Source: a virus
Direction: 5' to 3' (one strand)
Length of the DNA stretch: 64,000 nucleotides
Virus record (IMG/VR): IMGVR_UViG_3300021490_000002
Location: 17,255 to 81,254 of that record
Both the position numbers and the translations under genes were made by a program. The notes under the pieces were generated by a model, which saw only the letters and a list, made by a program, of their open reading frames with translations, did not search any database and had not been told where the DNA came from. Below, piece by piece: positions 6,201 through 59,500 of this stretch (positions within the stretch are counted from its first letter, which is position 1; each line of letters opens with the position of its first letter).

Positions 6201-9200
6201 CCTTCGTGACCAGATATTTACAATGGAAGCTGGACCAGAAGAAGTGGCAAGAACTGTTGAACAATTTTATACGACACTGACAAAGTTAAATGGTGCCTTC
6301 CTGAAAAACGCCGATATTTTGAAAGGTAAGTGGACTTCAGCGTTAGAAAAAGGGACTACAGTTCTTGAAAAGTTAGATGATACAATGCACCAGTTAATTG
6401 ATTCGTTTAAAGTTTTGAAAGAAAAGAAAGCTGACCTTGAATCTTTGGATTGGGAAGCTAGCCCTCAAACAATAGATACGGTTACAAAGGCTTTTACTGA
6501 GAGTAGGAAGCAATATCTTGAAAATCTTAAAAAGACTTTTGCTATCATCCAAGCATCTTTCTCTGCAATTCCAAAAACTAAAGAGGGGATTCCACAACTA
6601 GAGATACTGCAGGGACAATTAGAAAGGTTAAAAATTATAATTTCAGAAGTTACTAGTTTAAAGGGCGAGAATGCTATCTTTTCTAAAGACGAAGTGGCTA
6701 AGTTAAAAGAGATGACAAACGCAATAGATGAATTTGAAAATAAGATTAATGTAACAAAGGCTACTATACAAAAAACTGTAGATGAGACTATAACTGATAT
6801 ATCGAGTAAGGTTACACAAAAGACTAAGGAAAGTATTCAACAAGCAGACATGGCTATTTTAAAGGAGGTTGATAAACTACTTAAAGACCTAAAAAGTCTA
6901 ACCTCAAAAGTTACTGTCGGCGTTAAACTTACTCTTCTTTCTCCCCAGAAAGGGAATATTGCCAACTTGAAAAAGGACCTCTCTGATGTTTACGAGAAGA
7001 CTCAAACAATATTAGCTTCTATCACACATCTATCTCGTGGAGTATTTTCTTTATCCTCTTCACAAGCAAAAGAGCTAGTACAATCCCTTGAACAGATATG
7101 GACGGCCATTTCTACGGATTTGAAGAGGACTGCAAAAGATGGGGTGGTTACCTTTGATGAAATAACTAAAGCAGCCGAAAGATTAAGAAGCAGCACATCC
7201 TTACGTCAATTTAGCTTAGAAGGTTTAATGCGTGTTCTGGGAGTAGGAAGAGAGGCAGTGCAGGCTCTTGAGAATGAGGTAAATGCAGGTCTCCTAGATA
7301 CTTTCAGTAATTTGGAATTTAAGATTAATGAAGTGGGTAAGGCCCTTGAGTATATTCAAAAGCATCGGAAGGCTTTTGATGCCAAGGATGTGAAACAAGT
7401 TGTTAATCTCTTGGATAATCTCTTAAATAAGCAAGTTCAGTTCTTACAAACTATAACTCAAGCCTCCACTTCTATCTTCCAGAGCGCTAACTATGCTATG
7501 TCGATTTCTTCTTCCATACGGGAGGCATTTACAGGGACGGCCTCTTTGGACGATTTACTAGGTGTTTCTGATACTATCAAGTCGCTGGAAAAACTAAAGG
7601 GGAATGTAACTGATGTAATAATTGAGTTTGATGCGCTTCATAGTAAGTTTGGTGACTTATCAGCGCTTTTAGGGAAGAATGCAGAGAATTCTATGATTGC
7701 GCAACAGGCATTCGCTAAGCTGGGACGAACTGCCTCACAAAGGTTGGATGGTCTTGTGGATAGTTTGAGAAGTAGTGCTACTGAAATAAAGAACATTACA
7801 AATGAAATCAAAAATCTTAATGTTGAAATAGCAAAGATAAAATTTGATTGGCTAAAGACCTTAGAAGAATTTAAAGTTAAGTATAAAGGACCTGAATATG
7901 AATTTAAGGCACAACAAGAGAATTTAATAAATCAAGGAAAGTATGTTCAGGAAGTTCTACAAAATAACCCTTCCATAGATACTGTTGTCTCTGCATTAAC
8001 TGAATTTAGAAATAGCTTGATAGAGTTTGCAAAAGCTAACGCCTATCAACGTGTAGGAAAAGAATCTTTTACAAGGGCGGAGGAGATTACTAAAGCTATC
8101 ATTCAACTGCGGGAGAAGCAAAAAGCTCTACTAGAGGCAAGACTTCAGATTCAGTTGAACTATTATGCTATGGTCTCAAAATTTGCATTGTCGGTGATTG
8201 ACTTGCTGGGAAGGATTAAAGGAATTCTTGGAGAGCTTTACAAAGTAACGGCAGGGCAAAAAGCAGCAGGAGAAGCTGCTACTAAGGGTCAAGAGGGAGT
8301 TAAAGCACCAAAAGCACCTACTGGAGTGAAGCCAGAGGCAGGTAAGCTACAACCGCCAACTAAAGCAACTAAACCAACTACACCGCCAGCTCCTACTACT
8401 ACTCCAGAAGTTGCAAAGACCCCCAACATAAATACACAAAGTTTACAGGAATACGCACAAAAGTTGATGGAGTCATCCCAGAGGTTAAAACAGTCTTCTG
8501 CTGATTTGAATAGTTTTATCAATAGTTTAAGTAAGTTAGGTGGGGCTTTAAAGAGACAGAAAGTGAATGTGTTGTCAGCTAAAGAAGCCTTGATGAATTA
8601 TTCAGCTAGTCTCGGGACTATTAATAGTATAATTCAGCAAACTTTTAATTCAATGGCAGACACTATTAGGGGAACTTTAGCTAATGTTATGACCTCAGCA
8701 CTAAAGCAAGCATTTGAAGGTGACGTGGATTGGTATGGATTGTTTAGTGCTTTTTACTACCAGATTATGCAAATGTATTTTGATATGCTGCTAAAGATAA
8801 TGATGCAGGCGATGATTCAAAAGTTAGGCGGGAAAGAGTTAATGGATACTTTGTTCGGAACGTCAAATGCTTCGGCTTTTCAATCAGCGGTAGCTTCTAG
8901 TGCCACGTCTTTTTCATCTGCAGTTAATAATGCGTCAACTGAAATTATAACGGCTGGGCAAACATTTCATTACTATGTAGCTAACGCTGCTTTAGCTATC
9001 CAAAACGCTGCTGCTTCCTTGGCTGCAGCGTCAGCGTCAAGTGCAGCTAGTACTGCTTTTAATCCAGTTTCTTTGATGGGTCCGATGATGTCTTTACTAT
9101 CTGGAGCTGCTGGAGCTGGTGCGCCTGGAGGCGGTGGAGCCAAGCCTCCTTCTGGTCCTTATAATAATCTTCAACTACCTAAGCCTCAATTCCCGTCATA

Positions 9201-30732: not shown

Positions 30733-31626
30733 ATGTCCGCATATTTAATGTTTCACCCATCAACTTTACATTGGATAGATTCGGGAAATAAATTTTTCAT
30801 AAACTTATTGAATGACAACTTTTTACTAATGTCAAAATATTTAACCCCCTACTGCATCTTTATTCCTAGTGTGGGGTCGGCACCTATAAAAATGCACGAG
30901 ATAGCATATGCGGTTTTCTTTGAAAATATGACAAGACTGGCCTGTAGTAATGTGGATAATGGTTGTGGGATAGCAGGTGTTGTTGTAGGAAGAGATGAAG
31001 AGAGGAGACACCTATTGTTAAAGATGGGGGGAGTAGCCTATGTAAGATACGTTGGAGAGGTCTCTCCAGGAGACTTGCTCGGCGTGGCTGGAACCAAAGC
31101 TATAAAAATCACAAGCCCTGTAGATAAACGCTATGTAGTCGGAACCTGTATTAAGGTTTTATCAAACTACAATTTGGCACTAGTAAGATTAAGAAATTTT
31201 GCTACACATACAGACTTAGTTAATGTGGATAGCTTCCTACTTCCACCCCAGCTATTCGCTGGAGCAAGCTCTGGAAGTAGAACTGCAGTCTTCTTTGTGT
31301 ATGCAAAATATACGGCTGCAGATAATTCCGTTCACATAATTTCCACAACAGAAAAACAATTTACTGCTGACGGAAATGTAAGTGGTTTCACCAAACATCC
31401 TCTCCATCCAGATATTCTTCTTTCTGATATAAACGGCGATGAAATTGTATTATACTTAAAAACTTCCTTACATAAATCCTTCACAACCTTGCGTATGGAA
31501 TCTACTCCACCCAGGTACAACATTAAGCAAATAGACGACACCGTGATTCTTACACCAAAACCTGGAGCTAGTATAGCAGATTTAGATGATAAACCATTTA
31601 CTATAACTATATGGGGGGTCTGCTGA
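30733..31626 (+). CDS. Virion protein with cement/decoration-like domain (paralogue of previous)
   Basis: IAGVVV...GGVAYV...VSPGDLL...VVGTC pattern. Confidence 0.5.
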   Translation: MSAYLMFHPSTLHWIDSGNKFFINLLNDNFLLMSKYLTPYCIFIPSVGSAPIKMHEIAYAVFFENMTRLACSNVDNGCGIAGVVVGRDEERRHLLLKMGGVAYVRYVGEVSPGDLLGVAGTKAIKITSPVDKRYVVGTCIKVLSNYNLALVRLRNFATHTDLVNVDSFLLPPQLFAGASSGSRTAVFFVYAKYTAADNSVHIISTTEKQFTADGNVSGFTKHPLHPDILLSDINGDEIVLYLKTSLHKSFTTLRMESTPPRYNIKQIDDTVILTPKPGASIADLDDKPFTITIWGVC

Positions 31627-32453
31627 TGACTTTATCTATGGAAAAGGAAAATGGCTTATGGCTTCCAACAGTTGATATATCTCTAACATATAATGTTGGC
31701 GAAAACATTGACTTAATTGCTTTCTTTCCAGAAGTGGATGATAATTTTGGCCATTTAAATACCATGAGCGGATTTGCAACCACAACATTGGGATTCATTC
31801 CAGATTATAGTATTCATAAAGGAATTAGATTAACGTCATATGGGAACGAATTACACGATTCTAACAGTGACTTTCCTTGCTTTTATATAGGTTGTACCTG
31901 GAATTTCGACTTTACAGAAAGTAAACTTGTTCCTCCAGTAGTTCCTTTCGTTGGAAGGCTTGACATTCCTCTAAACCAGACATTTGATGATGGGAGGCTT
32001 GTCTATTATGTTGATGGTAACTTCACGGAGGAATCTGACGGAACTGAAGTAGCGGGATTGGTTTCCAAGGACCAACCTTTTGTATTCCCACTATCTTGTT
32101 TTATCTCTCTATTTGGGACCGCAGCTACCTCAAAACAGTTGTTTAGAGATAATGAACCTAGGCAGGTTATTTTCCTGCATTACGATAGTGAAAGCGGAAC
32201 TGGAGGAGGTGTAGCTAACATAAGATATGACGCTATAGAAAATCGTCATGTGCTGGATATAAGTACTGACAAGGCCTTGTTTAAACCTCCAATAGTTTTT
32301 GCTCAAGTTACTGGTGGGGATTTAGGAACTGTTATGGTCCAAGAAACAACAGTAGATTCTATCTATTTGAAAATTTATAAAACAGATGGTACTATAGATA
32401 CCAACGATAATCCTCAAACCTTTACCTTATTCGGAGTAGGAAGCTATGTATAA
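31611..32453 (+). CDS. Virion protein, probably a distant paralogue of the two preceding genes
   Basis: Similar size; similar C-terminus (FTLFGV vs FTITIWGV vs IFFLAHG). Confidence 0.4.
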   Translation: MGGLLMTLSMEKENGLWLPTVDISLTYNVGENIDLIAFFPEVDDNFGHLNTMSGFATTTLGFIPDYSIHKGIRLTSYGNELHDSNSDFPCFYIGCTWNFDFTESKLVPPVVPFVGRLDIPLNQTFDDGRLVYYVDGNFTEESDGTEVAGLVSKDQPFVFPLSCFISLFGTAATSKQLFRDNEPRQVIFLHYDSESGTGGGVANIRYDAIENRHVLDISTDKALFKPPIVFAQVTGGDLGTVMVQETTVDSIYLKIYKTDGTIDTNDNPQTFTLFGVGSYV

Positions 32454-33183
32454 TATTTTAGCCTCAGAACAAAGTGAATACCAACATATAATGGTAATTG
32501 AATTTTCTGGAGAAAAAAGATTATATTTAGATAACATTTTTCAGACATCCTTGCCCAACGACGACTACTACGAAATCTTACTGGATGGCGCCGAGCCTTC
32601 TGATGATATTTTAATTCTTGGAGGAGGTGACCTTACTTCTGTCCCAGTACTTCGTAGAAAAGGAATACAGAATTATAAGATTGTTGAAATTGACGAAATG
32701 GTGATAAATGTGTGTAAAATTTTTTGTCCAGTAAGAGAGGAGCGGTATAAAGATAAAATTGTAATTGGGGATGCATTTGAATACATACAAAGGGATGAAT
32801 CGTATGATGTGATTGCTATTGATTTATTGGGTTTTGCAGATTTAAATAAGTTATCTGATTTGTTGACATTAGAAGAATTTTTACGGAAAATTATTGACAG
32901 AACAAAAAAGTATTTTTCGGGTTTTATCGGATGTGGTATAAATGGATTAACTGCAGGAATTATACTGCGTGATTGGATAAGTAAGATAAACAAAGTGAAG
33001 AAGTTTTTTCTTATGTGTGATGAAGCTGGACAGATATTTTTTACTGCACACATAAACCCGAATATAAAGATGAGTCCAGCTACATTAGCAAAAACAATCT
33101 TTTACCCAACTTGGATTAATATTCCAAAGGTGCTGACAAATAAAAGTTTAACCGATAAAATGGCCTACTGCTCGGCTATTTAA
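32446..33183 (+). CDS. speE: Spermidine synthase / polyamine aminopropyltransferase homologue
   Basis: SEYQHI, LYLDNIFQ, ILILGGGD, VEIDEMVI, GDAFEYI, YDVIAID. Confidence 0.8.
   Translation: MYNILASEQSEYQHIMVIEFSGEKRLYLDNIFQTSLPNDDYYEILLDGAEPSDDILILGGGDLTSVPVLRRKGIQNYKIVEIDEMVINVCKIFCPVREERYKDKIVIGDAFEYIQRDESYDVIAIDLLGFADLNKLSDLLTLEEFLRKIIDRTKKYFSGFIGCGINGLTAGIILRDWISKINKVKKFFLMCDEAGQIFFTAHINPNIKMSPATLAKTIFYPTWINIPKVLTNKSLTDKMAYCSAI
33133..33161 (+). promoter_or_regulatory. Possible sigma70-type promoter for terminase genes
   Basis: CTGACA-17 nt-TAAAAT within the 3' end of speE. Confidence 0.4.
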
Positions 33184-33194
33184 TATAGAAGGGG

Positions 33195-33608
33195 TTGGAG
33201 ATGAGTGATAGTTACAACTTAGTTGACCCAACAGTTCCAGATATATCTGCTGAGGATGTATCTTCCGAAAAGCCAGACGGTGTTTTAGATTTTTGCGTCC
33301 GTAACATTTCTTATGTAATCGGCAAGAATAGACAACTCATAGAAGAAGCTGAAGTTGGTTTTGATTCTTACATAGGTAAAAAACCTCATGTCGCTGCTCA
33401 ATTTCAAAACAATATGTTAAAGGCCCTTCAACTAGAAGCTGATTTAGTAAAGCTACTTCTAACTATCCGAGAATATACAAGAAAAGAAACCAAAGAATCT
33501 GGAGAGGATAGTAAGTATGTAGATAATAGAAAAATTGTAATAAATTTAGATAGTAATTCCAGGAGGATGTTGGCTGATGTTATCAGCGGAAAATTCTCTC
33601 ATAAGTAA
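33195..33608 (+). CDS. Probable terminase small subunit
   Basis: Helical 137-aa protein overlapping the start of terL. Confidence 0.5.
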   Translation: MEMSDSYNLVDPTVPDISAEDVSSEKPDGVLDFCVRNISYVIGKNRQLIEEAEVGFDSYIGKKPHVAAQFQNNMLKALQLEADLVKLLLTIREYTRKETKESGEDSKYVDNRKIVINLDSNSRRMLADVISGKFSHK

Positions 33609-35190
33609 AGATGGGAAAATACAGGAAGAAATTCCTCGTGAAATTCTAGCCGAAGTGTGTGCTTTCCATTACGATGCGTTTATGTATTCTGTTCTTCCAG
33701 ACTTATTTTATACAAAGTCTTTTAGCCCATTCCATCGCTATCTACTAAAACTAATAGAAGATAATCAAAAAACGAGAAGGAGACGTGTTGTTGCAGGTCC
33801 CAGGGGATGGGGTAAATCCACTACTATTTCCGAAGGTGGTCCACTGTGGATTGTATGCAGAAATGATTATTTACCACCAAAGAAGCGTTATAAATATATT
33901 TTGCTAGTTTCTGACACGCAACCCCAAGCAGAAAAGAGATTGACAACCATAAAGGAATATTTGGAGTCCGATATAATTGCCTATTTATTTCCACACGCCC
34001 ACGGTCCTGGAAAAAAATGGAAAAGCTCAGAAATAATAACTAAAAACGATATCTTGATTGGAACTGCTGGTTTGAAATCTTCCATACGTGGAACTAAATA
34101 TAAAAATAGGAGGCCAGACCTTATTATAGTAGATGACCCTGACAACTTAGAATCTGTTACCTCTCCATCACTATCAGCAACTGTTGAAGAAGTGTTTACA
34201 AGAGACCTTGTAAAAGCAGGAAGTGAAGATGCAGACATTTTAGTAGTCGGAACTGTCCTTGCTAAAACTGCCTTAGTATATAAATTACTTTATAGTGAGG
34301 ACTACGCTGCCTGGGAAGGAAAGATTTTCAAAGCCCTTGTTTCTTTCCCAGAACGAATGGACTTATGGGATGAATTTGGAGAGATATTAAAAGACAGGGA
34401 GAATAAGTTTAGGAAAAAAGATGCTCTAAAATTTTATTTCGCACATAAGGAGGAGATGCTCAAAGGAGCTAAGTCATTATGGGAGGAAGTCTATCCAGTC
34501 AGAAAGCTAATGGAAGAATACTACTTAGAAGGCAGAAGAGCCTTTATGCTTGAAAAACAGAATGAGATAATTGAAGATGAGGAAGGAGTATTTAGACCAG
34601 AAAAATACAAGTATTACGAAGACGAAGAATTGGAAAAAATATATGCTTACCATCCTCTCATATATGTTTATGTTGACCCAACTGGAGGGAAACAGAAAAG
34701 CAGAGGAATTGGAAGAAGGAAAGGCGATTCCGACTTGTTTAGTTTATGTGCTTTAGCGAAACTGGATAATAATTTGATTTATTTTATTGACAATAAGGTA
34801 GGTCAATTAAGACAAAGCGAGCAGTATTTTCTAATATACAAGTTTATAAAAGAGTATGAGGAAAAAGGGTTAAGAATTTTTAAGTTGCTTGTAGAAGATA
34901 GAGGGGATAATTATTATGTCAACGGCCTAAAGGAATTTCTAACGAGACGTGGTTTACGCAGGCCTGTCCCACAAGTTGTTACCCATAGAGTGAATAAGGT
35001 TGAGAGGATATCAATGTTAGAGCCATACCTTGACAATTGGACTCTTATTCTTCCAGCTAACAGAAGGCGTTTTAAAGAATTTTACACTGAATTGGAAACA
35101 TATCCCTATTGTGATTTTGATGATGTTCTGGATAGTTTGTCTGGATGCTTCTTTGCAGCATATAAAACCTTTAGACTGAGGTATGCCTGA
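33577..35190 (+). CDS. terL: Terminase large subunit
   Basis: Walker A GPRGWGKST, Walker B LIIVDD, coupling VGT, nuclease YVDP and DDVLDS. Confidence 0.93.
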   Translation: MLSAENSLISKDGKIQEEIPREILAEVCAFHYDAFMYSVLPDLFYTKSFSPFHRYLLKLIEDNQKTRRRRVVAGPRGWGKSTTISEGGPLWIVCRNDYLPPKKRYKYILLVSDTQPQAEKRLTTIKEYLESDIIAYLFPHAHGPGKKWKSSEIITKNDILIGTAGLKSSIRGTKYKNRRPDLIIVDDPDNLESVTSPSLSATVEEVFTRDLVKAGSEDADILVVGTVLAKTALVYKLLYSEDYAAWEGKIFKALVSFPERMDLWDEFGEILKDRENKFRKKDALKFYFAHKEEMLKGAKSLWEEVYPVRKLMEEYYLEGRRAFMLEKQNEIIEDEEGVFRPEKYKYYEDEELEKIYAYHPLIYVYVDPTGGKQKSRGIGRRKGDSDLFSLCALAKLDNNLIYFIDNKVGQLRQSEQYFLIYKFIKEYEEKGLRIFKLLVEDRGDNYYVNGLKEFLTRRGLRRPVPQVVTHRVNKVERISMLEPYLDNWTLILPANRRRFKEFYTELETYPYCDFDDVLDSLSGCFFAAYKTFRLRYA

Positions 35191-38264: not shown

Positions 38265-38591
38265 ATGGCTAGAAGAAAAGTTAGAAAAAAGACAACGAGG
38301 GTAAAAAACAGAAGTAAATTCCCAAAGTCTCTAAAGAAGATGTTTCAAAAGGGTGGGAAACTACTAACACAAAAGAGACGTAGGGAACTCCCAGCCAGGT
38401 ATTTTTTACTTCCAAAGCAACGGAAGTATCCGTACGTGAATCCAAATACTGGGAAGCCTTCTGTTTATCTTTTAACTGCAGCTTATAGAAGGGCCAAACA
38501 ATATCATAGAAATGATATAGCTGCCAAAGCTGCAAGATTGTTGAAAAGATATTTTGGAATAACTCCTGGAGAAAGAAGGAGAAGAAGGTAG
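38265..38591 (+). CDS. Highly basic protein, probable DNA-binding/condensing
   Basis: R/K-rich ends (MARRKVRKK...RRRRR); ELPARYFLLPKQRKYPY core. Confidence 0.6.
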   Translation: MARRKVRKKTTRVKNRSKFPKSLKKMFQKGGKLLTQKRRRELPARYFLLPKQRKYPYVNPNTGKPSVYLLTAAYRRAKQYHRNDIAAKAARLLKRYFGITPGERRRRR

Positions 38592-40316: not shown

Positions 40317-40352
40317 AATACAGTGGGGTCTAAGTCAGCCCCACTGTATTTT
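40315..40352. terminator. Bidirectional terminator at the convergence of the two arms
   Basis: Perfect 14-bp inverted repeat AAAATACAGTGGGG / CCCCACTGTATTTT with a 10-nt loop. Confidence 0.85.
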
Positions 40353-41103
40353 GGTACAACATCTTTTCTGCACTTAAATCAAAGTCGATATAAATTCCAC
40401 TTACACCCCTTCCTTTCCTTTCCAGAATCTTACTTACATAGAATGGGTATGTTAAGGTAAAGTTGCTCTCATACTTCTTTCCTATATGGTAAGGTAAGAC
40501 GACAAACCAGCAATTATCAATAATTGGAGAGGGAATATGAACGTGGTAAACTATCTTGTTTTCTACAAAATAGTTAAAAAAGTTGATAAAATTCTTAGCT
40601 ACTCCTATTGTAGCTCCTGGAAGGATGAAAATCTTATCATCTATAGCGTTAATGACGTCCAGATTCACCTGACTTAGTCTCAGTTCATGAAATGCAGTTA
40701 CTGGAGGACAAAAGCAAATAAGGTCGTGTTCTTTTAAAGGGAAGTCAGCCGTGTCAGGAATTTCTTTCGGAATCGTTGGAATATTTTTACTCTCAACACT
40801 TTCCAATGTATATAAAAACTTATTAGTTAAATTAACCCTTTCAACGTTTACGTCTCTTACCAGATAGAATAGGTCATCCACAACGAGAGGCCTCTTTATA
40901 TTAAACGCCTTGATAATATCTGTAAGAAAGGTACTAAAACAATTATAAACTGGAACTGATATTATATCTACATACGCAACACAACCATTTAACACATATA
41001 TTGTCTGACCTAACTTTTTCAAAATAAGAAAAGAATATGGAAAAGTCTCGTAATATTTTAATGCGTTATCATCTTTTATCTCAATGAGAAAGCTCATCTC
41101 CAA
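40330..41103 (-). CDS. Degenerate spermidine-synthase-fold protein
   Basis: YETFPY...GQTIYVLNG, IKRPLVV, HDLICF, VYHVHIPSPIIDNCWFVV follow SpeE motif order, but the GGG SAM loop is missing. Confidence 0.4.
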   Translation of the reverse strand: MEMSFLIEIKDDNALKYYETFPYSFLILKKLGQTIYVLNGCVAYVDIISVPVYNCFSTFLTDIIKAFNIKRPLVVDDLFYLVRDVNVERVNLTNKFLYTLESVESKNIPTIPKEIPDTADFPLKEHDLICFCPPVTAFHELRLSQVNLDVINAIDDKIFILPGATIGVAKNFINFFNYFVENKIVYHVHIPSPIIDNCWFVVLPYHIGKKYESNFTLTYPFYVSKILERKGRGVSGIYIDFDLSAEKMLYQNTVGLT

Positions 41104-43076: not shown

Positions 43077-43922
43077 CTAAGTCCTCCTTATTTTAAAATA
43101 AAGTTTATAAACGACATCTATAAAACTTCCCGTATCTGTTGCCCGACCTATTTCACCAAGTATTTCAGAAGTCTCCAAAACTTCTTTTTCACTAATTTGA
43201 TAGTTGGCCTTGAGCTCACTAAAGAAGGCATTTTTAAAATAGTCTAAAAGAGCTATTTTCAATGGAAATATGCCAAACTTTTGCAAATACGACTCAAATA
43301 ATTCGCTGAATTCATTTATTGGCGACTCCAGCAGAGCTGCAATGAATTCTTTTTGCTCTGTTTGATAGTTACTAAGTTGCGTCATTACTTCTCTCCTATT
43401 CGTAGCCCTTTGTAGATGTTTGGCAAAGAACTTTAAAACACTTATTCTTCCTTGACTCACATCATATAATTTTTCTGCTATGGCCTTATTGTATTTCCAT
43501 AAACATTTTTTAGCCAAATTCTTGGTGACAAAATCCACTGCATCCAGAGTCAAGTTCCCAATAATAATTCTATTGGGAGATACTATTTCATCTTCAAAAA
43601 ATATTCCTACATTACTTTTGTCAATGAAATACGATACAAACTTTCTGTCTGGGATATGGACAAAAAAATAAATTTCCTTTATGGCGGGAGACTTTAATAC
43701 TCGTAAAGTCTTATCTGTTCTAACACATAGAGCCATTTTATCTATATAAACTACATTTTCACTTCCTAAAATATTCTGGAGGAGTAGCAAAGGAATGTCA
43801 GGTTCGCTTGCAACAAATTGGGTGCAGGGGAGGATTCCCTCCCCCAGCTCATATTCATCTAAATGTTTGTTTGACTGCATTAAGGCAGAGAATAATTCCA
43901 AAGGGTCTTTATTCTTCCTCAT
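43077..43922 (-). CDS. Possible degenerate clamp-loader (AAA+ delta/DnaX-like) protein
   Basis: AIAEKLYDVSQGRISVL resembles the clamp-loader lid/sensor-2 region; no Walker A. Confidence 0.3.
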   Translation of the reverse strand: MRKNKDPLELFSALMQSNKHLDEYELGEGILPCTQFVASEPDIPLLLLQNILGSENVVYIDKMALCVRTDKTLRVLKSPAIKEIYFFVHIPDRKFVSYFIDKSNVGIFFEDEIVSPNRIIIGNLTLDAVDFVTKNLAKKCLWKYNKAIAEKLYDVSQGRISVLKFFAKHLQRATNRREVMTQLSNYQTEQKEFIAALLESPINEFSELFESYLQKFGIFPLKIALLDYFKNAFFSELKANYQISEKEVLETSEILGEIGRATDTGSFIDVVYKLYFKIRRT

Positions 43923-44754
43923 CCTTCTTCCCTAGCTTTCTTTCTCTTGGTTGAATTACAAATTCATAATATTCCTCATCTGTAAGTCCCATTGAAGCAG
44001 CCCTTCTTTTATCTTCTGGACTCAACTCTACTTTCTTTCCTCCTTCTCCGCCACCTCCACCTTCACCAGTGTCTTCTCTAGGAGTCTTCTTTTGAGGTGG
44101 TTCGCCCTTAACTAAATTTGAATTCTCTGGAGCAGATAAGAATTTTTCTAAGAATTCCTTTGGAGATAATTCTGCGATACCGCCAGACTCTGTTTTCTCT
44201 TCTACGACATATTCTCCATCCTCATTCACCTTAAAGAAATGTTTTGTAATTAAATATATTTGTTCTGGATTGACTGCGTTCATCTGCGTGGCAAGGTTTA
44301 CCAGCTCAGCTTTCAACTTATAATCACTAAGTTCTCTTACTTTTTGTTCCCTTTCTTCTAATGCGCTTTTCACCTTCTCATACTCATCTTTAGGGACATA
44401 GTTCTCTAGCTGCTTTTTCAGCTTATCTAGCTCTCCAAGTAATTTCTCCTTTTCGTAGCGCTCCTTCTCCAACTCGTCCATCCGCTTCTTTTTCTCTTCC
44501 TCTTCCTTCTCCTTATACTTCTGCAATTCCTCTTCCAAAGACTTATACTTTTCCAGTTCTTCCTGTAGGGACTGTAAAGAATTTAGCTGTTCTTGAAGGT
44601 CGTTCATTTGTTTTTGAAGCTCACGGCGCTCTTTCTTTAACTTGTCTCTCTGTTCTATAACCTTCTTAAACTCAGTTTCAGGAATATACTTCCCTTCACC
44701 ACCTCCACCTTCAGGTGGAGTAGGATTGTTGTTATTAACTTTTCCATCACCCAT
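43909..44754 (-). CDS. Capsid scaffolding protein
   Basis: Long E/K coiled coil, AVNPEQI, Gly-rich linkers; directly downstream of the portal. Confidence 0.75.
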   Translation of the reverse strand: MGDGKVNNNNPTPPEGGGGEGKYIPETEFKKVIEQRDKLKKERRELQKQMNDLQEQLNSLQSLQEELEKYKSLEEELQKYKEKEEEEKKKRMDELEKERYEKEKLLGELDKLKKQLENYVPKDEYEKVKSALEEREQKVRELSDYKLKAELVNLATQMNAVNPEQIYLITKHFFKVNEDGEYVVEEKTESGGIAELSPKEFLEKFLSAPENSNLVKGEPPQKKTPREDTGEGGGGGEGGKKVELSPEDKRRAASMGLTDEEYYEFVIQPRERKLGKKDEEE

Positions 44755-44787
44755 AGTTTATACCTCCTTCATATATGATTTCTGTTG

Positions 44788-44816
44788 ATTATATATTTAT
44801 TTCTTATTGCTGTCAA
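44788..44816 (-). promoter_or_regulatory. Consensus sigma70 promoter upstream of scaffold gene
   Basis: TTGACA (44816-44811)-17 nt-TATAAT (44793-44788). Confidence 0.85.
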
Positions 44817-46257
44817 CTGCAGAAAAGGAAACCATCTTAGCTAATTTACCTTTTTGTATCTGGGAAATAGGAAGAGGAAGGATATACGTTAGTTCTCTAA
44901 TTAATTCGGAGACGTATTCTGGGGATAAACCTGTTTGCACTAAATTGGAAATATTTAAAGTTGATACAATCCAGGACTGTAGTGAGTCTAAGGAAAAAGT
45001 ATCTGGGTATAATATTTCAAGGTCATCCCCTGCTTCTTTACCTATATACTTTCCAATCGTCTGGAATATTCTTTTTTCAACTAGGGCCATACTTTTACAA
45101 AATTTTGCAAGCTTATTAGATACATACTCCATATCAAACGAACCGTCGTATCTCTGTATCCCAGACAAATACATTGCAAAAAATATTGCGTCTCTCACAA
45201 TCTTCCACACATTTCCCATACCGCTGACTGGAGGGGAAATGTAGTTTGGAGGATGTCCTGTATTTGCAGGAAATGTTAGAACAGTGGACTTTGCTAATCT
45301 CCGTAATGCAGGGTCCAGCCCTTGTTCAATAAATGAGTCTGCATTAGCTAGTTCAAGGTAGAGGTTATATTCTTCATCGTATTGCATCTGTCTTAATTCA
45401 GATTGTTTGGCTTGCCATTCTTCAATACTTCCATCGTCTGGAAGTGTAAGCTGGTAAAATGCATTTCTTTCCCCCAGCTCCTCTGCGAGCGAGATGTTGT
45501 TTAAAATTCCTTTCATTATGTAAGCTAATCCCAAACCTAATCCTTGGCGTCTATTGATTCTGAAAGAAGACGGAAAGTTGAGCTGAAACACAGGTGTGTA
45601 GCCTAACCCATGCTCAAATGGCTTTACGATATTGTTACCGTTCTCATCAACTTCATAAATTTTTTCGTAATCTACGATAATATAAACATCTACTTCATCT
45701 CCCTCAACAACTTTTGTTGTTTTAAAGGTTGCCCACATAAATCCATGCCGTCTCCTCTTATCCCAATTGATTAACTGGGTAGGAGAAAATAAGGAAACTG
45801 TAGGCATTATTTCTTCCGCAGAACTACTATACTCTGGAAAGTCCACCCCTTCGTCTATAGAGGTAAATGCGTAATCAACAAAGATATATGCCGAGCCAAA
45901 GTAAGCAGATAAGATTCCTGCCTCACACATAAAGTCGTCCAACGGGTCTCCATAACCCGTAGCATCGTCAATAAAATCCAAATATTCATCTACGCCTTTT
46001 CTAATTACACCCTCTTTAAAAATTGGCTCTACAAAAGAATTCAAAACCTTTCTAGCTATGTCAAAGTACCATGCTCTTTTCAAACGAGTTTGATAGGCAG
46101 AAGAGTCTTCAAAGCTATGTTGTAATAAATAATCTTTCGTAACAAAGTCTTCCCCACCTTCAAGAGCATCTAATAGAAAGTCATATTCGTTGGCATATTT
46201 ATCATACAAAGGATGATTGTCCATGCGGTCTTTTATACCAGGTAATTTGTAACCCAT
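44797..46257 (-). CDS. Portal protein
   Basis: HPLY...DALEGG...YQTRLKRA, DATGYGDPLDDFM, HGLGYTPVF motifs (SPP1/DUF4055-like portals); GGGGG RBS before ATG 46257. Confidence 0.8.
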   Translation of the reverse strand: MGYKLPGIKDRMDNHPLYDKYANEYDFLLDALEGGEDFVTKDYLLQHSFEDSSAYQTRLKRAWYFDIARKVLNSFVEPIFKEGVIRKGVDEYLDFIDDATGYGDPLDDFMCEAGILSAYFGSAYIFVDYAFTSIDEGVDFPEYSSSAEEIMPTVSLFSPTQLINWDKRRRHGFMWATFKTTKVVEGDEVDVYIIVDYEKIYEVDENGNNIVKPFEHGLGYTPVFQLNFPSSFRINRRQGLGLGLAYIMKGILNNISLAEELGERNAFYQLTLPDDGSIEEWQAKQSELRQMQYDEEYNLYLELANADSFIEQGLDPALRRLAKSTVLTFPANTGHPPNYISPPVSGMGNVWKIVRDAIFFAMYLSGIQRYDGSFDMEYVSNKLAKFCKSMALVEKRIFQTIGKYIGKEAGDDLEILYPDTFSLDSLQSWIVSTLNISNLVQTGLSPEYVSELIRELTYILPLPISQIQKGKLAKMVSFSAVDSNKK

Positions 46258-46272
46258 ACGAGTACCCCCCAA

Positions 46273-48846
46273 TTATTTTTGCCAAATTTCTGTTGCCTTA
46301 CAATCGGCCTCTAGTGGAATCTTCCACATAAAATCCTTTACAAACGGATATTTCTCTTTGATTTTATTTTCCATACAATCCTTGACTAGACTTTTTATGT
46401 AATCTTGAGGGACGTCATTTCTGACTTCTAAGATGACTTCATCATGAACTTCTCCCCAGAAATTTACCTTATTTATGTATAAAGGGCAACTTATCTTTTT
46501 TCCAGCCCTTCTTACAATTACCTTTTCCGACCTTAGCCTCTCCATAATAGTATTGAGAGCCATCAAGAAAATGTCTGATGCAGTAGATTGGACGCATGTA
46601 TTGACCGCTTTTCTGTAAACACTAGCATCCAACTTATTAAACCTTCTGATTCTTCCAGTAGCCGTCCTAATAAAAAGATTTTTTTCTACAAATGCATGGA
46701 CTTCTTGTATCCAATTGTATATAGATTGCATTCCCTCAAAATAATCGTCAATAAATTTTTGTGCCGTTTCTGTATCCCAACTTCCATCAGGTAATTTCAT
46801 TTTTAACCTCTTAGCGAGGCCTTCTGCAGTCATTCCATATAAAATTCCAAAAGTAATTGTTTTAGCACGTTGTCTGTAAGTTATCACTCCATGTTTCTTG
46901 TTTTCCTCATCCAACTTGATAAGTTCATCATATGGAATCTTAAATGCCTTTGATGCAACATAAGAATGGAAGTCAAGTCCAGAAACACAAGCTTCCAATA
47001 TCTCCTCAGATTTAGCATAAGCGCCTGCAACCCTTACCTCAATCTGGGAATAGTCAGCAGACAATAAATAATACCCTGGCCTAGCCCTAAATAAAGCTCG
47101 CATTGCAGAATCTCTAGGAATATTCTGTATGTTTATCTGGTTTGTTTTTCCTAGTCCTACAACATCACTTCCACCAGACGAGGTCCTACCAGAACGAGTT
47201 GTATTTGTCTTGAAAGAAGCATAAACCAAATCTCCCTGCCGTCTTTGTTTAATCCCCTTGACGTATGTATTAAATTCCTTGGATATTTTCCTATAAAGCA
47301 AGAGTAATTTCGATAAAGTATGATTTTTTCCTTCCTCCGTCTCCATGAATTCCACTAAGACTTCTTTTTTCAAGGAAGTAAAGTTTAAGTGTGGGAAAAA
47401 CTGATTATACACTTCTAGTAACTGAGGATTTGAATTAGGATTAATTTCACACCCATATTTTTTCTTATACCATTTTCCCTCTGGTGTATTTCGTATATGT
47501 CGGAGTAGGATTTCAACTTTAGCACTTAATTTTTTTTCCACCTTTTTCCACATTTCTTCATTGATTGTTATACCATTAGCTTCCATATCCCGCAACGCAT
47601 TCTTAGCATCCATCACAATACTATAAATAAAGTCTAACTTGTTCTTCTTTACTTCCTGCAGCGCTAAAAAATATAATATAGAAGTTACCACACCATCACC
47701 AGCACAATATTTGTAAATCTCTTCTGGAGAAAGGAAATCAAGGTTTTTCTCCTTCTTTGCTCTCGCTTTTATTTCGCCTCCCCAGTGTGAAAGTTCAGGA
47801 ACATATTCGTAGGCCAAAGAAGCCAAATTATACTTTTTTCTTCCTTGGTTAATAAGATAACAGGCATCCATAGGGTCGCCAGAGATTCGCACTCTAATTC
47901 CAGTATGCTTATAAATAACACCCGTATCGTACGTGGCGTTAAAAGCAACGGCCTTTGTTTTATCCAATGCCCTAGCCAAATCCGCAGTCCATTCTCCCGT
48001 ATATATAATTACTTTTTCTTTTGGATACTCAAGCGTAAATTTTCCAGGACTGTATGTAGTTTCAGGTAGGCTTTGGAAGAAAGTAAATACAGTACAAATA
48101 TGATTGCAATATTCTTTACCGTAAAACCAATCTAGTGCTGACCTACCTTTAGCATCAACCTCACATTTTGTTTCCAGGTCAAAAGTAACAATCTTCCCCT
48201 CGTATTCTTTTAATTTTTCTATCATTTCTTTTTCTGAGGAAACTTTAGTGAAGTAAAAATCAAAAGAAGATTGGAAATTTATCCCTGGAATTTCCCTAAA
48301 TAAATTTTCAATTGTTTTGCCTTCATGCTTTAGGAATTCACCATAAGCTCTTTTTACAGATTGTTTATCGGGAGAACCAAAACTCCACTCTACATGACGA
48401 CGGATGTAATAGGCTGGATGGTAAATACATGCATAGAATTTTCCGTCTTTCTGAATAACTTTTCCGTGCGTTTCTTTTAACTCCAAGCCGAGGATTCTTT
48501 TCACTGCAAACTGACCTAATAATATAAATAGATTTCCTTTAAATCTATCTAATTCATGTTTATGAAGTTTAAAACATCTCTTGGCCGTAGGCTCTAATAG
48601 TTTTTCTCCATCGGGAAAGCACTTTACTACATTAAACCTGTATGTATCTTTCCTTTCAATCCCAAATTTTGCTAGTAACTTAAATATGAATTCTCCACTC
48701 ATTCCAACTAAATTGTCCCCCTGAATAGATTCCTGTCTTCCAGGAGACTCACCTATAAGACAGACTTTCCCTTTTGGATTTCCTCTAGTAGGAACATATT
48801 TATTAGCCACGAATTGACATTTAAAACAAGCTTCTGTTTTAGGCAT
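46273..48846 (-). CDS. polA: DNA polymerase family A with N-terminal family-4 uracil-DNA glycosylase domain and 3'-5' exonuclease
   Basis: UDG: CFKC, GESPG, NVVKC, YHPAY. Exo: FDLET, FNATYD, YCAGD. Pol: DYSQIEVR, RQRAKTITFGILYG, VHDE. Confidence 0.93.
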   Translation of the reverse strand: MPKTEACFKCQFVANKYVPTRGNPKGKVCLIGESPGRQESIQGDNLVGMSGEFIFKLLAKFGIERKDTYRFNVVKCFPDGEKLLEPTAKRCFKLHKHELDRFKGNLFILLGQFAVKRILGLELKETHGKVIQKDGKFYACIYHPAYYIRRHVEWSFGSPDKQSVKRAYGEFLKHEGKTIENLFREIPGINFQSSFDFYFTKVSSEKEMIEKLKEYEGKIVTFDLETKCEVDAKGRSALDWFYGKEYCNHICTVFTFFQSLPETTYSPGKFTLEYPKEKVIIYTGEWTADLARALDKTKAVAFNATYDTGVIYKHTGIRVRISGDPMDACYLINQGRKKYNLASLAYEYVPELSHWGGEIKARAKKEKNLDFLSPEEIYKYCAGDGVVTSILYFLALQEVKKNKLDFIYSIVMDAKNALRDMEANGITINEEMWKKVEKKLSAKVEILLRHIRNTPEGKWYKKKYGCEINPNSNPQLLEVYNQFFPHLNFTSLKKEVLVEFMETEEGKNHTLSKLLLLYRKISKEFNTYVKGIKQRRQGDLVYASFKTNTTRSGRTSSGGSDVVGLGKTNQINIQNIPRDSAMRALFRARPGYYLLSADYSQIEVRVAGAYAKSEEILEACVSGLDFHSYVASKAFKIPYDELIKLDEENKKHGVITYRQRAKTITFGILYGMTAEGLAKRLKMKLPDGSWDTETAQKFIDDYFEGMQSIYNWIQEVHAFVEKNLFIRTATGRIRRFNKLDASVYRKAVNTCVQSTASDIFLMALNTIMERLRSEKVIVRRAGKKISCPLYINKVNFWGEVHDEVILEVRNDVPQDYIKSLVKDCMENKIKEKYPFVKDFMWKIPLEADCKATEIWQK

Positions 48847-56500: not shown

Positions 56501-59500
56501 CTAATTACATGCCGAATATCCGCAGTCTGGGTTTAAGCATGTGCCACTTCTACAGGAACCATAGCCTACACGGAAGGTTTTTTCACCACAAGCAGGGCAA
56601 ACTTGGAGGGAGCTTTTATCTATCTCTTCATCCTCACCAGTACTGTCAGTTTCCTTAAGTTCTTTGGCTTCTAGTAAGTAGTTTTCTAACAGATATCCGA
56701 TAGCACCGAAGACATCATTCACGGAAACGCTTTTGTTTTTGTCTGGGAGATAGAGAAAGAATCTGTCCCCACCACAAGTATCCAGAACTTTTATTATATC
56801 CTGGATAGTAACTCTATCCTTTTGCAGCACTTTTGATACTATTCTTCCCAAAGTTCGCAAGGCAATTGAAGAGAATGTATCCAAGGGTGTAAGGTCAAGG
56901 AAAATTTCTTTAAGTTCTCCATCCCAGTGGTTTCCTCTAAGGTATAAATTACCCCGAGGAGTCTTAACCTCTAATTGAAGTCCTGTCCTAATAAAAGGCC
57001 TTATCTTATCTTTCTTCTCTTCCTTTTCTGTATCTTTACCAAAATCAACTGGAGCCATGTTTAAACATCCATCTCTAAATACAGTCACACCTTTTAATTT
57101 ATGGTGATAAGCTGCAACAAATATCTCTTCCACATCTTTCGGAGTAGCGTCATTAGGGAGATTGTAGGTATAGGATATTCCCATGCATATATTGTCTTGA
57201 CCTACTGCGTGCATTTCCATTTTTCTCTTCCAATCTAATTCCAATTCAGTTTTTAACACATTTTGCACTTTTCTCGGAAACTCTTTTAAACCATCAGCCC
57301 TACCTTTATTGTTATAAATCTTTTCAAGAAGTTTCTCGTTGAAGTCAACACCATACCTCTCACAAATAATCTTCAAGGGCTCTGGGTAAACAGTCCATGT
57401 ATCTCCACTAGAAGTGTGTTTCTTCCAGCACAAAGAAAAATGAGGAACAAAAGAGTAAGAAGCACCACATGAAAGTGCAGTAGAACCAGTAGGCGCAATA
57501 CAAGTAACTAAACTATTTGCTATTCCTTTCTTCCAGTCGTAATAAGTATCGCCAACAATTTCCTTAAACTCCTCTATCTTTGAGTAGTATAGTCGCCCTA
57601 GAATATCTTCCATGTTATGCCTGGAAGAGAACTTAAGCGGTTTTAATAGTGGATTGTTGCTATAATCTTTCTCCTGGGCAAAATACATAGAGTAATGATA
57701 TGCCCTATAAGTTAGGAAGCTACATATTTTTCTAAACAATTCTATTGCTTCATCTGAATCATAAGGAATTTCCTTGAGAATTAGAACGTCTGCGTAGCCT
57801 ATCAATCCCAATCCAATAGGAGCTAGGCCTTCCATTAAATATTTAAAATTCTTATGCGGATATGCAGTCTTCTGTAAAATCCTATTTAAAGCTAACACAC
57901 CATACTTTATATAATAATCAAATAACTTCCAGTTTATTTCGTAATCTTCAGTCAACACCTTCACTAAGTTAATATGACCTAAATTACAAACAAACCAGTC
58001 TGGGCCTGAGACCTCGCCACAGTTCCCCGTACAAATGCCATTAAATACTAAAGCATGATTTACAAACTCAGTTGTATCAAATACAGGCTCTCTTCCCACA
58101 TACTCTATGGCTACCACTGTATCCTCTCGCTCATTTGTTACAGTTGGAAGCCCATCCAAGTATTCTGTAATCTCATCATAATAACGTGAATAAGGAACAC
58201 CTATGTTCTCGAGAAAATTGTTAATATCAATATCATCTTCTATTTTTAGTACATGAGTTGTCTTTTCTATTACACCGTTAAGAACTGGTTTTACTATCTT
58301 TTTCCTTGCACATCTTCTACTAAATATACCAAAGTAAGTAAGCAAGACTTGCAAATCTTTCAAAAAACTCTCATGTGGAGAAAAAATCTGTAAACAAAGA
58401 GATTGCTTTTCTTTACTTACAGTCCCTTTTCCTGCGAAGTATCCCACTATAAAGGCAGCTACCATTCGTTTCGTTCCAGACCAGACAACTTCTGGAATAG
58501 AGTATCTTGTTTCTTCAAAAACACCACAACTCTCTACAAACTCCTTAAGTTTCTCAGACGCAAGAATCTTCTTAACAACTCCCTTTTTAGAATCCTCTTT
58601 TTCAACCCATTTGGCATTCTCATCAATATATTTACGTATATAAGACAATAAAAGTTGTTCTAACAATATCTTTTCAGATTTGGTACGAATACAAAAACCT
58701 GCCTTTGAGTCATTCATATAACCATCAGCGATGAAAAAGCCTAAGATAAATCCCTTAGCATAGTCCTCATCAGTCCCTTCTGGAAGGTCAATGCCTCCGC
58801 TATAAATCCACACTTTGTCGCCGACATTCATATCAGCTAACTTTATTTTACCTCTATTTGTGTAAAAATCATGCCATCTAGTAGCTTTTAGTTCATATCC
58901 AGCTTTAGTCCTTACCAACCAAACATCTGCCTCTTTTGAAGTCATAAATACAGGAACAGCCTTAAAGTACTTTTTATCTTCATCCCCAGATTGCCTAATA
59001 TCCTGAACCACAACTAAATCCTTCCCCGAACGATATAAGTCTATTATCCGCTTATACCCCCATACAGTTAGCAATCTGGAGTCAGCAGTTACGCACGGGT
59101 TGGTTGAAATAATATCACCATAAGCTGGGTCAGGATTATCTATATTCATTCTATCATAAAATAATAAACCTGGGTCTCCACATTCCCATGCCTTGCTAAG
59201 AATTATCTTCCATAGTTCTTTACCATCAAATGTCTTTCCTGCATACGCAGACCTCTCTCCTATTGGAGATTGATACGGTATTTGCGCATCCCCATCACCT
59301 AATACTGCGTCCATAAATGCATCTGTTACACAAACTGATATATTCATGGAAGTAAACTTACTTCCTGTATTATCTTTAGCTAAAATAATATCCTTACAAT
59401 CAGGATGATTAAACATCGCTGATATCAGATTGGCTGCCCTCCTACTTTTTCCTCCAGACTTGACTTGTTCAGCAATTTCCTGAACGACTCTTAGATACGA

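Follow-up and report, generated by a model that had tools for sequence, protein, structure and literature searches.

Our preferred reading, to which we give a probability of about one half, is that the SpeE-like gene at 32446..33183 (+ strand) encodes an active dcSAM-dependent aminopropyltransferase of one phage lineage, situated in the late virion-gene block and with a polyamine as its likeliest product. Positions refer to the window, the whole stretch of 64,000 nucleotides that was analysed from the virus record IMGVR_UViG_3300021490_000002. The assignment of the encoded 245-aa protein (P0001) is based on a PF01564 match, on profile and predicted-fold matches, and on a clade tree; judged from its sequence, it is a divergent, shortened, and remodelled member of the spermidine-synthase family and not a canonical host-like SpeE.

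The SpeE-like gene belongs to an uninterrupted run of genes in one direction, which also includes tail genes and TerL. A purine-rich Shine-Dalgarno-like stretch (GGAG..AGGAAG, 32433..32443, +), read from the sequence, is located 3-13 nt 5' of the ATG. The start of the gene overlaps the stop of an upstream 280-aa ORF (31611..32453, +) by 8 nt; its own stop codon is at 33181-83, and an 11-nt gap separates it from a putative terS ORF (33195..33608, +, starting at TTG 33195 or ATG 33201), which overlaps the start of TerL, the large terminase subunit (33577..35190, +; phrog_38, E 2.4e-65). The preliminary description of this DNA had placed a SpeE homologue in overlap with the last structural gene and directly before terS/terL; the ORF and this arrangement are confirmed, and the names given to the two flanking ORFs reflect position only. 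The 280-aa ORF has no match in Pfam, PHROG, or NCBIfam, and the ORFs that occupy its place in relatives are comparable in size but resemble it marginally at most; it is fast-evolving and possibly encodes a tail or fibre protein. Similarly, the putative terS ORF matches no family in these three databases, and it has a homologue in the same place in locus L015 (27% over 106 aa, E 2e-7). Identity of the TerL protein to its counterparts in four related viral records and in a metagenomic relative, L019, is 42-56%. Promoter-like and terminator-like sites are not in excess (52 vs 49.6 expected from shuffled sequence, and 4 vs 9.1), and a tRNA search found none. The source record is 81,254 bp long and about 80% complete, and the exact 44-mer at its right end had no match in IMG/VR that would extend it. 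P0001 is also recorded on a contig of 102,518 bp.

The family assignment is supported at several levels. P0001 gives the single PF01564 match of the whole record (Pfam; 48.2 bits vs a cut-off of 22.9, E 1.2e-12, residues 53-129), and PDB spermidine synthases are matched at E 8e-10 with P0001 alone and at 3.7e-22 with the clade profile. By hhalign against 47 canonical SpeE sequences, P0001 residues 3-211 align with positions 24-246 at a probability of 99.9%. The ESM Atlas model of P0001 (pTM 0.80) superposes over residues 1 to 205-245 on aminopropyltransferase clusters with TM values of 0.73-0.76, in eight of eight among the matches listed. On the other hand, the NCBIfam equivalogs NF002010 and TIGR00417 are matched over residues 3-127 only, at 66.2 bits vs 260 and 55.1 bits vs 249.55, respectively. 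The protein had been described as N-terminally short; indeed, its alignments begin at about residue 22-24 of canonical SpeE, and PF17284, the N-terminal beta-hairpin tetramerisation domain, has no match at E<=0.01.

The active site was compared in 14 intact clade members and 53 canonical sequences. The Asp of the GGGD motif in spermidine synthase excludes the carboxylate of SAM. Within the clade, Q13, D62 (GGGD), E81, D83, D109, and D126 are invariant in 14/14 members, as is the pair D109-A110, and the dcSAM-site set checked comprised the Gln of S-x-Y-Q, the Asp of GGGD, the Asp of E-I-D, and the Asp-Gly/Ala of G-D-G/A. The catalytic proton acceptor D126, the first Asp of DSSD / D-x-x-D-P, is present in all 14 clade members and in 53/53 canonical sequences. 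The roles of these dcSAM-binding and catalytic residues in spermidine synthase are among those listed in the available part of PMC13118584, in which the GGGD Asp is given as a dcSAM-binding residue essential for activity.

The surroundings of these residues, on the other hand, are rebuilt. The GGGDLT and IDLLGF loops, which the preliminary description had singled out as deviating from SpeE, are clade-wide signatures: canonical GGGDGG becomes GGGDLT, and canonical D-x-x-D-P becomes D-L-L-G. Position 129, the second Asp of D-x-x-D-P, is D/E in 48/53 canonical sequences, whereas it is G, S, or A in 14/14 clade members. In addition, the acidic loop E-x-D-E...Y-H-E (E36, D38, E39, H43, E44) is gone, and L-P-N-N...Y-Y stands in its place. 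His43 is found in 48/53 canonical sequences and in no clade member (0/14); Glu44, in 50/53, is replaced by Ile, Thr, Met, or Cys; and Glu39, in 49/53, gives way to Asn or Asp in 12/14. The His/Gln that follows a conserved Tyr is likewise lost, with E, D, G, N, or A instead. The altered acceptor site suspected earlier is thus borne out by systematic motif changes in the clade. In these alignments, the clade has lost the usual diamine-binding features while retaining the cofactor and catalytic residues. Since it lacks the residues that would grip the distal end of putrescine, the ordinary conversion of putrescine to spermidine is not assured.

Two relatives of known specificity were compared at the diagnostic positions described in the consulted part of PMC11107197. 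Thermospermine synthase, for which a Glu in motif 2 (GGGE) and an Asp in motif 3 are expected, does not fit the clade, which has D62 and E81 in 14/14 members. Spermine synthase is expected to have an Asp in motif 2, a Glu in motif 3, and a Gly two residues after the motif-2 Asp; the clade shows the first two features, but Thr64 replaces the diagnostic Gly in 14/14 members.

The loss of the acidic, diamine-holding residues beside an invariant dcSAM and catalytic set would also be consistent with an acceptor other than a free polyamine; the aminopropyl group might go instead onto a nucleotide or macromolecule, for example onto phage DNA that is yet to be packaged or onto a protein of the virion or the packaging machinery. 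That the gene immediately precedes terS/TerL in all lineages and is physically separate from speD points the same way, and so does the count of other polyamine-pathway genes (PLP ODC/ADC, PF02784, and arginase/agmatinase, PF00491, each in 0/4 records). However, P0001 is acidic (pI 5.1) and consists of the SpeE fold alone, the analysis detected in it no domain that binds DNA or protein, and we know of no SpeE-fold enzyme that has been described to aminopropylate a protein or a DNA base. Moreover, aminopropyltransferases are flexible in their small-molecule acceptors without such a change, as far as the available text of PMC11107197 describes them. A macromolecular or nucleotide acceptor is therefore rather unlikely, and we regard as doubtful the more specific proposal that the clade enzyme aminopropylates phage DNA, a nucleotide, or a virion protein during packaging, which would be an undescribed dcSAM-dependent modification.

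Plant putrescine N-methyltransferases evolved from spermidine synthase, and P0001 might by analogy transfer a methyl or aminocarboxypropyl group from SAM itself. The ESM feature neighbours of P0001 include clusters of generic class I methyltransferases, the present record has no speD, and the variant in relative G003 has Ser for D62, all of which would fit such an enzyme. Nevertheless, D62, the dcSAM-binding residue reported as essential in the part of PMC13118584 consulted, is kept in 14/14 intact members and SpeD occurs in relatives, which makes use of SAM very improbable.

The clade is known from metagenomic and viral sequence only (12 representative clusters, 241-246 aa). It is monophyletic (SH-aLRT 100) and set apart from canonical SpeE by a branch 0.68+1.52 substitutions per site long, in a tree whose canonical set was 71 sequences of 250-340 aa chosen among the best matches to P0001, with other matches left out; these sequences carry no functional assignment, and the clade is thus placed relative to them and not to functionally characterised subfamilies. 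The divergence from SpeE noted in the preliminary description is therefore reflected both in a clade of its own and in the score of 66 bits against an equivalog cut-off of 260. The 12 cluster representatives share 28-46% identity with 18 invariant columns, a pattern indicating purifying selection on the clade. An alignment-based scan of IMG/VR found four relatives, a scan of the same database with P0001 alone gave 15 pattern matches and no relative, and a metagenome scan gave 77 pattern matches and one relative (L019). Among GenBank phages, a megablast of 10.5 kb gave no match, and tblastn of P0001, P0011, and P0016 against 50,697 phage records found no clade member; the only matches were the speE of Microcystis phage MaAM05 and two Salmonella records, which score as a canonical SpeE would.

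These data bear on the idea that the gene is an ordinary host spermidine synthase, recently acquired, which travels along as a passenger or auxiliary function and is not specifically tied to the phage group. Such an origin has a precedent in the one phage SpdSyn that PMC9992855, in the part available, places close to gamma-proteobacterial enzymes. It is contradicted by the long branch of the clade, by a jump in E-value from 3e-23 to 2e-11, and by the single position of the gene in phages of 37-61% GC. Among 185,579 species genomes, 15 stretches contained the signature peptide and none was confirmed as a relative (tblastn E <= 1e-3), a negative that is weak because the scan sees the exact signature [LV]ILGGGDLT only. 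On the sequence evidence as a whole, a host passenger is effectively refuted, and the clade is best described as old and the gene as a fixed core gene of one phage lineage.

The linkage to the terminase was examined through TerL. The SpeE-like gene lies directly before terS/TerL in 5/5 related phage lineages with sequence (G001 and G002 are one phage, with 7 differences in 20,600 nt), so that the absence of a conserved terminase linkage, named in the preliminary description as part of what would count against it, is not observed. A first TerL scan reached distant TerLs only (<=32% identity), and a TerL-profile scan gave 53 loci, of which the close ones were the same four records only. When the clade profile was run by hmmsearch over 75 loci (2,308 ORFs), it matched only in those four records, in L019, and at its own locus; its silence outside the close records means that 49 distant TerL loci are without a SpeE-like gene. 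As read from gene order, the linkage is whole-block synteny within one lineage and alone is no proof of a packaging role.

The absence of a SAM decarboxylase, stated earlier for the window, extends to the whole 81,254-bp record: AdoMetDC PF02675 gave no match in either (E<=1), and tblastn of the SpeD proteins of relatives against the record gave chance-level matches only (best E 0.06). A search for the eukaryote-type AdoMetDC, PF01536, was uninformative, with silent controls. The slot after dUTPase, syntenic with the speD of relatives, is occupied in the present phage by an unrelated 255-aa ORF. In relatives G001/G002 and G004, an AdoMetDC is present (PF02675, above the cut-off), encoded beside dUTPase about 23 kb from the SpeE-like gene. 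The G001 SpeD keeps the spacing of the Ser/His/Cys processing triad and scores 73.6 bits vs the TIGR03330 equivalog cut-off of 75.65. SpeD homologues can be neofunctionalised decarboxylases (ODC/ADC), according to the part of PMC10407285 consulted, and those of the relatives could be such enzymes.

The remaining relative, G003, is 100% complete and has no AdoMetDC. Its SpeE-like copy (P0021) occupies the same position as an intact ORF of 226 aa and carries D29N, D62S, and D126S. By sequence, G003 may thus serve as a natural control, in which a relative without SpeD has lost the Asp residues holding the aminopropyl amine (D62, D126); the correlation between SpeD and an intact enzyme is drawn from no more than four independent genomes, of which one is incomplete. 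The G003 copy also hints at a possible role of the protein that is independent of catalysis. P0001 might then be mainly a non-catalytic protein with a SpeE fold, such as an assembly factor, virion component, or ligand binder with a structural or chaperone role, as the retention of the altered ORF in a complete genome and the neighbouring tail and head genes, which are not metabolic, would allow. However, in the 14 other members all cofactor and catalytic residues are invariant at an overall identity of only 28-46%, which is hard to explain without catalysis, and two relatives encode SpeD; a mainly non-catalytic protein is accordingly quite improbable.

The SpeE-like gene had further been grouped with two other genes as a charge-neutralising module. 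The gene at 38265-38591 is very basic, as claimed (37 K+R of 108 residues, pI 11.9), but its protein has a homologue in 0/3 relatives searched and is ruled out as a conserved partner. The gene at 40330-41103 is conserved in 3/3 relatives; it had been called a second SpeE-fold gene, a claim that fails, since hhalign against SpeE profiles gave probabilities of 0.2% with the single sequence and 0.4% with a four-sequence family profile, and no Pfam, PHROG, or NCBIfam match was found. Its Atlas model (pLDDT 0.29) is too poor for its fold to be judged. The three-gene module is therefore not upheld.

Based on the results presented above, we return to the active aminopropyltransferase of the late virion-gene block, which we infer to work as follows. 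The enzyme would bind dcSAM as spermidine synthase does and transfer the aminopropyl group to an amine, with Asp126 as the base. The gene is probably cotranscribed with late genes for the virion and for packaging. The cofactor would come, in relatives, from the phage SAM decarboxylase of the nucleotide-metabolism block and, in the present phage, either from the host or from a part of the genome, roughly 20%, that the record does not cover. Since its place is conserved and some relatives also make what is likely its cofactor, the enzyme probably works. The likeliest product would be a polyamine made from a small di- or triamine acceptor, and the supply of polycations may thereby be raised during phage DNA synthesis and packaging. 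According to the available part of a review (PMC7226272), polyamines are found packaged in phage virions and are required for the synthesis of phage DNA, and activity has been demonstrated for one phage SpdSyn, as described in the portion of PMC9992855 consulted.

Virus-encoded polyamine enzymes are a recent topic. The novel elements here are an old clade confined to viruses and metagenomes, its place in the packaging block, an intact cofactor site with a rebuilt acceptor site, and the G003 control. The protein is small and easily expressed and may provide a handle on other uses of dcSAM in phage infection, and the family allows one to ask whether phages regulate how much polycation is available for packaging their DNA.

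Compared to bacterial and archaeal SpeE (PF01564; comparison set PDB 4uoe/2pt6 of P. falciparum, 1inl of T. maritima, 3o4f of E. coli, and 1uir of T. thermophilus), P0001 has in common the catalytic Rossmann domain (hhalign 99.9%; predicted-structure TM 0.76), the dcSAM-site residues, and the catalytic Asp. It differs in being about 23 residues shorter at the N-terminus, without a PF17284 match, in having GGGD-L-T for GGGD-G-G/A and D-L-L-G for D-x-x-D-P, in its last 35 or so residues, which are unrelated, and in reaching only about one fourth of the scores that the NCBIfam equivalogs require. For human and bacterial spermine synthase, the longest PDB alignment of the clade profile is with 3c6k (profile positions 2-170); the clade has Thr, not Gly, two residues after the motif-2 Asp and lacks the N-terminal SpmSyn domain. 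The MaAM05 speE (MW495066), the only match of P0001 in the 50,697 GenBank phage records, is 29.6% identical over 51% of the query (E 5e-4), covers the N-terminal half only, and falls outside the clade. A published parallel is the viral SpdSyn-AdoMetDC module (Li et al. 2023), which also has a virus-encoded aminopropyltransferase, and G001 and G004 likewise carry a class 1b-type AdoMetDC homologue. In the part of PMC9992855 available, the published SpdSyn and AdoMetDC form a clustered pair, and the only phage spermidine synthase reported is a recent bacterial acquisition close to gamma-proteobacterial SpeE and clustered with speD. Here, by contrast, the enzyme belongs to a deep, virus-only clade within a morphogenesis block, with speD about 23 kb away in relatives and none in the record. 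Phage spermidine synthases have thus already been published, and the P0001 clade is a new variant of them.

The SpeE-like gene is real and lies at window positions 32446-33183 on the plus strand, where a 245-aa ORF (P0001) is preceded, just 5' of its start codon, by a purine-rich stretch resembling a ribosome-binding site. The 280-aa ORF ahead of it runs 8 nt into its start; 11 nt separate the stop of the SpeE-like gene from the next ORF (137 aa), which in turn overlaps the gene of the large terminase TerL (33577-35190, plus strand; phrog_38, E 2.4e-65). In Pfam, the match of P0001 to the spermine/spermidine synthase family PF01564 reaches 48.2 bits (E 1.2e-12), where the cut-off is 22.9. The best PDB match is the spermidine synthase 4uoe (E 8.2e-10, residues 4-127), and the best 26 of the 29 PDB sequences matching at E<=1 are spermidine, spermine or thermospermine synthases or polyamine aminopropyltransferases, a set far above chance expectation. 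Profile-profile comparison aligned residues 3-211 of the clade formed by P0001 and its short virus-only relatives with canonical positions 24-246 (probability 99.9%), and the ESM Atlas model of the exact P0001 sequence (pTM 0.80) superposes on aminopropyltransferase clusters with TM values of 0.73-0.76, from residue 1 to residues 205-245. Consequently, P0001 as a whole corresponds to one SpeE catalytic domain with approximately 23 N-terminal residues missing, a shortening already recognized in the preliminary description and now measured by the profile alignment.

An exhaustive phmmer search with P0001 against 1.84 billion representatives gave 437 matches at E<=1e-3. Eleven proteins besides the query, 241-246 aa in length, align with it almost end to end (E 6.6e-59 to 3e-23); after a gap in E-values, ordinary SpeE proteins begin at E 2e-11 and match the N-terminal ~125 residues only. 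The 21 clade cluster members examined all derive from assembled metagenomes, the contigs reaching 146 kb. P0001 itself is recorded on a contig of 102,518 bp, in line with a full genome of about 102 kb, and P0010 and P0166 lie on Logan contigs of 129 kb and 91 kb. A maximum-likelihood tree built from 85 rows unites the 14 rows of the clade in a single group with an SH-aLRT of 100, and a branch measuring 0.68+1.52 substitutions per site sets this group apart from 71 canonical sequences; these 71 are the top matches and carry no functional labels, so the tree does not place the nearest characterized subfamily. P0001 also falls far short of the NCBIfam SpeE equivalogs (66 bits versus 260 needed), no clade member was found in 50,697 GenBank phage records, and an exact-peptide scan of 185,579 species genomes gave 15 stretches with the clade signature peptide, none a confirmed relative. 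The gene therefore belongs to a distinct clade and is not a host gene; the earlier suspicion that it is no ordinary host SpeE agrees with this separate position in the tree.

An alignment-based scan located the SpeE-like gene on four related IMG/VR records (G001 to G004), of which G001 and G002, with 7 differences over 20,600 nt, are one phage, and a metagenome scan supplied a further relative, L019. In all five independent lineages, the window included, the gene stands directly before a small ORF and TerL, so the proposed linkage to the terminase holds throughout. The surrounding tail genes and post-TerL genes are syntenic across these lineages, in which TerL identity is 42-56%, SpeE-like identity 28-38%, and GC content between 37% and 61%; the two ORFs immediately upstream are hypervariable. 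None of 49 more distant TerL loci carries the gene; taken together, these findings make it a long-standing core gene in a single phage lineage. Gene order kept within one lineage is nevertheless no proof of a functional tie to packaging. In G004, TerL (L018:11191-13926) has 911 aa and matches the TerL of the window in two blocks of 366 and 170 aa, which points to a large inserted segment that may be an intein.

On the same strand, upstream of the SpeE-like gene, are a tail-assembly protein (phrog_778), a tape-measure-like protein (295-9819; PF10145 at residues 1510-1688) and otherwise a series of ORFs without annotation. The tape-measure-like protein has the unusual length of 3,174 aa, which would call for a very long tail. 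TerL is followed by a 908-aa protein with weak tail-like matches only; after it come ORFs of 101 aa and 108 aa, the second strongly basic, and a protein of 572 aa carrying a cement-like domain. The strand then switches, and a scaffold-like gene and the portal occupy 43909-46272 on the minus strand (portal 44797-46272; phrog_145, E 2e-26). The head genes are scattered: TerL lies on the plus strand ~10 kb from the minus-strand portal and scaffold-like gene, and the major capsid gene (L014:9191-10186, before the window) ~40 kb upstream. Beyond the portal comes an 857-aa family A DNA polymerase (46273-48846, minus strand) in which a uracil-DNA-glycosylase-superfamily domain at the N-terminus and a 3'-5' exonuclease domain are joined in a single protein, then a primase-helicase, a RecA-like gene, a ribonucleotide reductase large subunit (56501-59869, minus strand) that an intein carrying LAGLIDADG homing-endonuclease domains interrupts, a dUTPase, and a divergent ThyA-like gene (61861-62685, minus strand). 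The last matches TIGR03283 over its C-terminal ~90 residues only (E 7e-13, far under the cut-off) and may act as a dTMP synthase or as an enzyme of the base-hydroxymethylase type; a small RyR-domain protein (62919-63281, minus strand; PF02026, E 2e-11) lies in the nucleotide-metabolism block. Promoter- and terminator-like sites around the SpeE-like gene are no commoner than in shuffled sequence; the gene is thus most simply regarded as part of the late co-directional block, and we infer that it is expressed late.

The preliminary description had joined the SpeE-like gene with two others into a DNA charge-neutralizing or stabilizing module, and this proposal is not supported. The supposed second SpeE-fold gene (40330-41103, minus strand) encodes a 257-aa protein without family, PDB or fold match; hhalign detects no kinship with SpeE, the probability being 0.2% for the sequence alone and 0.4% when four family members are combined into a profile, and the quality of its Atlas model is too low for fold comparison. 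A search of three relatives found the protein in each (E 1e-20 to 6e-6), so it is a lineage core gene. The 108-aa protein at 38265-38591 (plus strand), between the post-TerL genes and the cement-like protein, is protamine-like in composition as described (34% K+R, pI 11.9) but is not a conserved module partner: a homologue is missing from 3/3 relatives, in which non-basic ORFs occupy the syntenic position.

Residue roles were assigned from the list for spermidine synthase in PMC13118584. The cofactor-site residues Q13, D62 (of GGGD), E81/D83 (E-I-D) and D109-A110 are kept in all 14 intact clade members, as is the proton-acceptor D126. On the other hand, the second Asp of D-x-x-D-P, which is D or E in 48/53 canonical sequences, is G, S or A in 14/14 clade members; the G-G/A after GGGD becomes L/M-T, with Thr invariant (14/14); and the acidic loop E-x-D-E..Y-H-E becomes L-P-N-N/D..Y-Y-x-I, its His being present in 48/53 canonical sequences versus 0/14. 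The GGGDLT and IDLLGF departures noticed earlier are therefore correct, extend across the clade, and are family signatures under selection. By the motif rules in PMC11107197, Asp62 and Glu81 argue against a thermospermine synthase, and Thr64 is off the spermine synthase pattern. It is reasonable to suppose from these replacements that the acceptor is other than putrescine; a non-polyamine target is possible too.

SpeE enzymes use decarboxylated SAM (dcSAM), made by the SAM decarboxylase AdoMetDC (SpeD). The absence of this gene from the window was borne out and extends to the full 81,254-bp IMG/VR source record, of which the window covers bases 17255-81254 and whose completeness CheckV estimates at 80%; the position behind dUTPase is taken by an unrelated 255-aa ORF, so dcSAM would be supplied by the host or by the fifth of the genome that the record lacks. 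G001/G002 and G004 each encode an AdoMetDC that scores above the Pfam threshold. In G001 the order is NrdD, NrdG, dUTPase, SpeD; in G004 SpeD immediately follows dUTPase, with ThyX ~2 kb beyond; and by contig ranges SpeD lies ~23 kb from the SpeE-like gene in both. The G001 SpeD (73.6 bits versus a TIGR03330 cut-off of 75.65) shares the spacing of the T. maritima processing triad S63/H68/C83 (PMC10407285), namely Ser, His(+5) and Cys(+15 from His). No AdoMetDC was found in G003, a 136-kb genome rated 100% complete and the only complete relative without SpeD. Its SpeE-like copy (L017:9998-10678), just under the PF01564 cut-off (20.7 versus 22.9 bits), carries D29N, D62S and D126S, the last two at the GGGD Asp and the catalytic Asp, and would be a natural catalytic-dead or cofactor-switched form. 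A non-catalytic role or SAM-dependent chemistry is also possible for the SpeE-like protein; the intact members keep D62 and D126, and this co-variation with SpeD across four independent genomes is the best available evidence that intact enzymes use dcSAM. The relatives' SpeD homologues could in principle be neofunctionalized. PLP decarboxylase and arginase/agmatinase were found in none of the four records.

Based on sequence comparison, P0001 belongs to a new virus-only clade and is probably an active aminopropyltransferase that depends on dcSAM; its gene is fixed in the morphogenesis/packaging block of one phage lineage, and the acceptor site of the enzyme is rebuilt. The enzyme would make a polyamine-type polycation late in infection; this is its most likely role, with a probability of about one half. 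A literature search found neither a short virus-specific SpeE clade nor one beside terminase genes, and supplementary files could hold such cases. As shown by Li et al. (PNAS 2023, PMC9992855), phages and viruses encode active polyamine enzymes, spermidine synthase (SpdSyn) and AdoMetDC form a clustered pair in one phage and two eukaryotic viruses, and the published phage SpdSyn is close to gamma-proteobacterial SpeE. According to a review of older work (PMC7226272), polyamines are packaged in phage virions, and T4 requires them to synthesize and mature its DNA.
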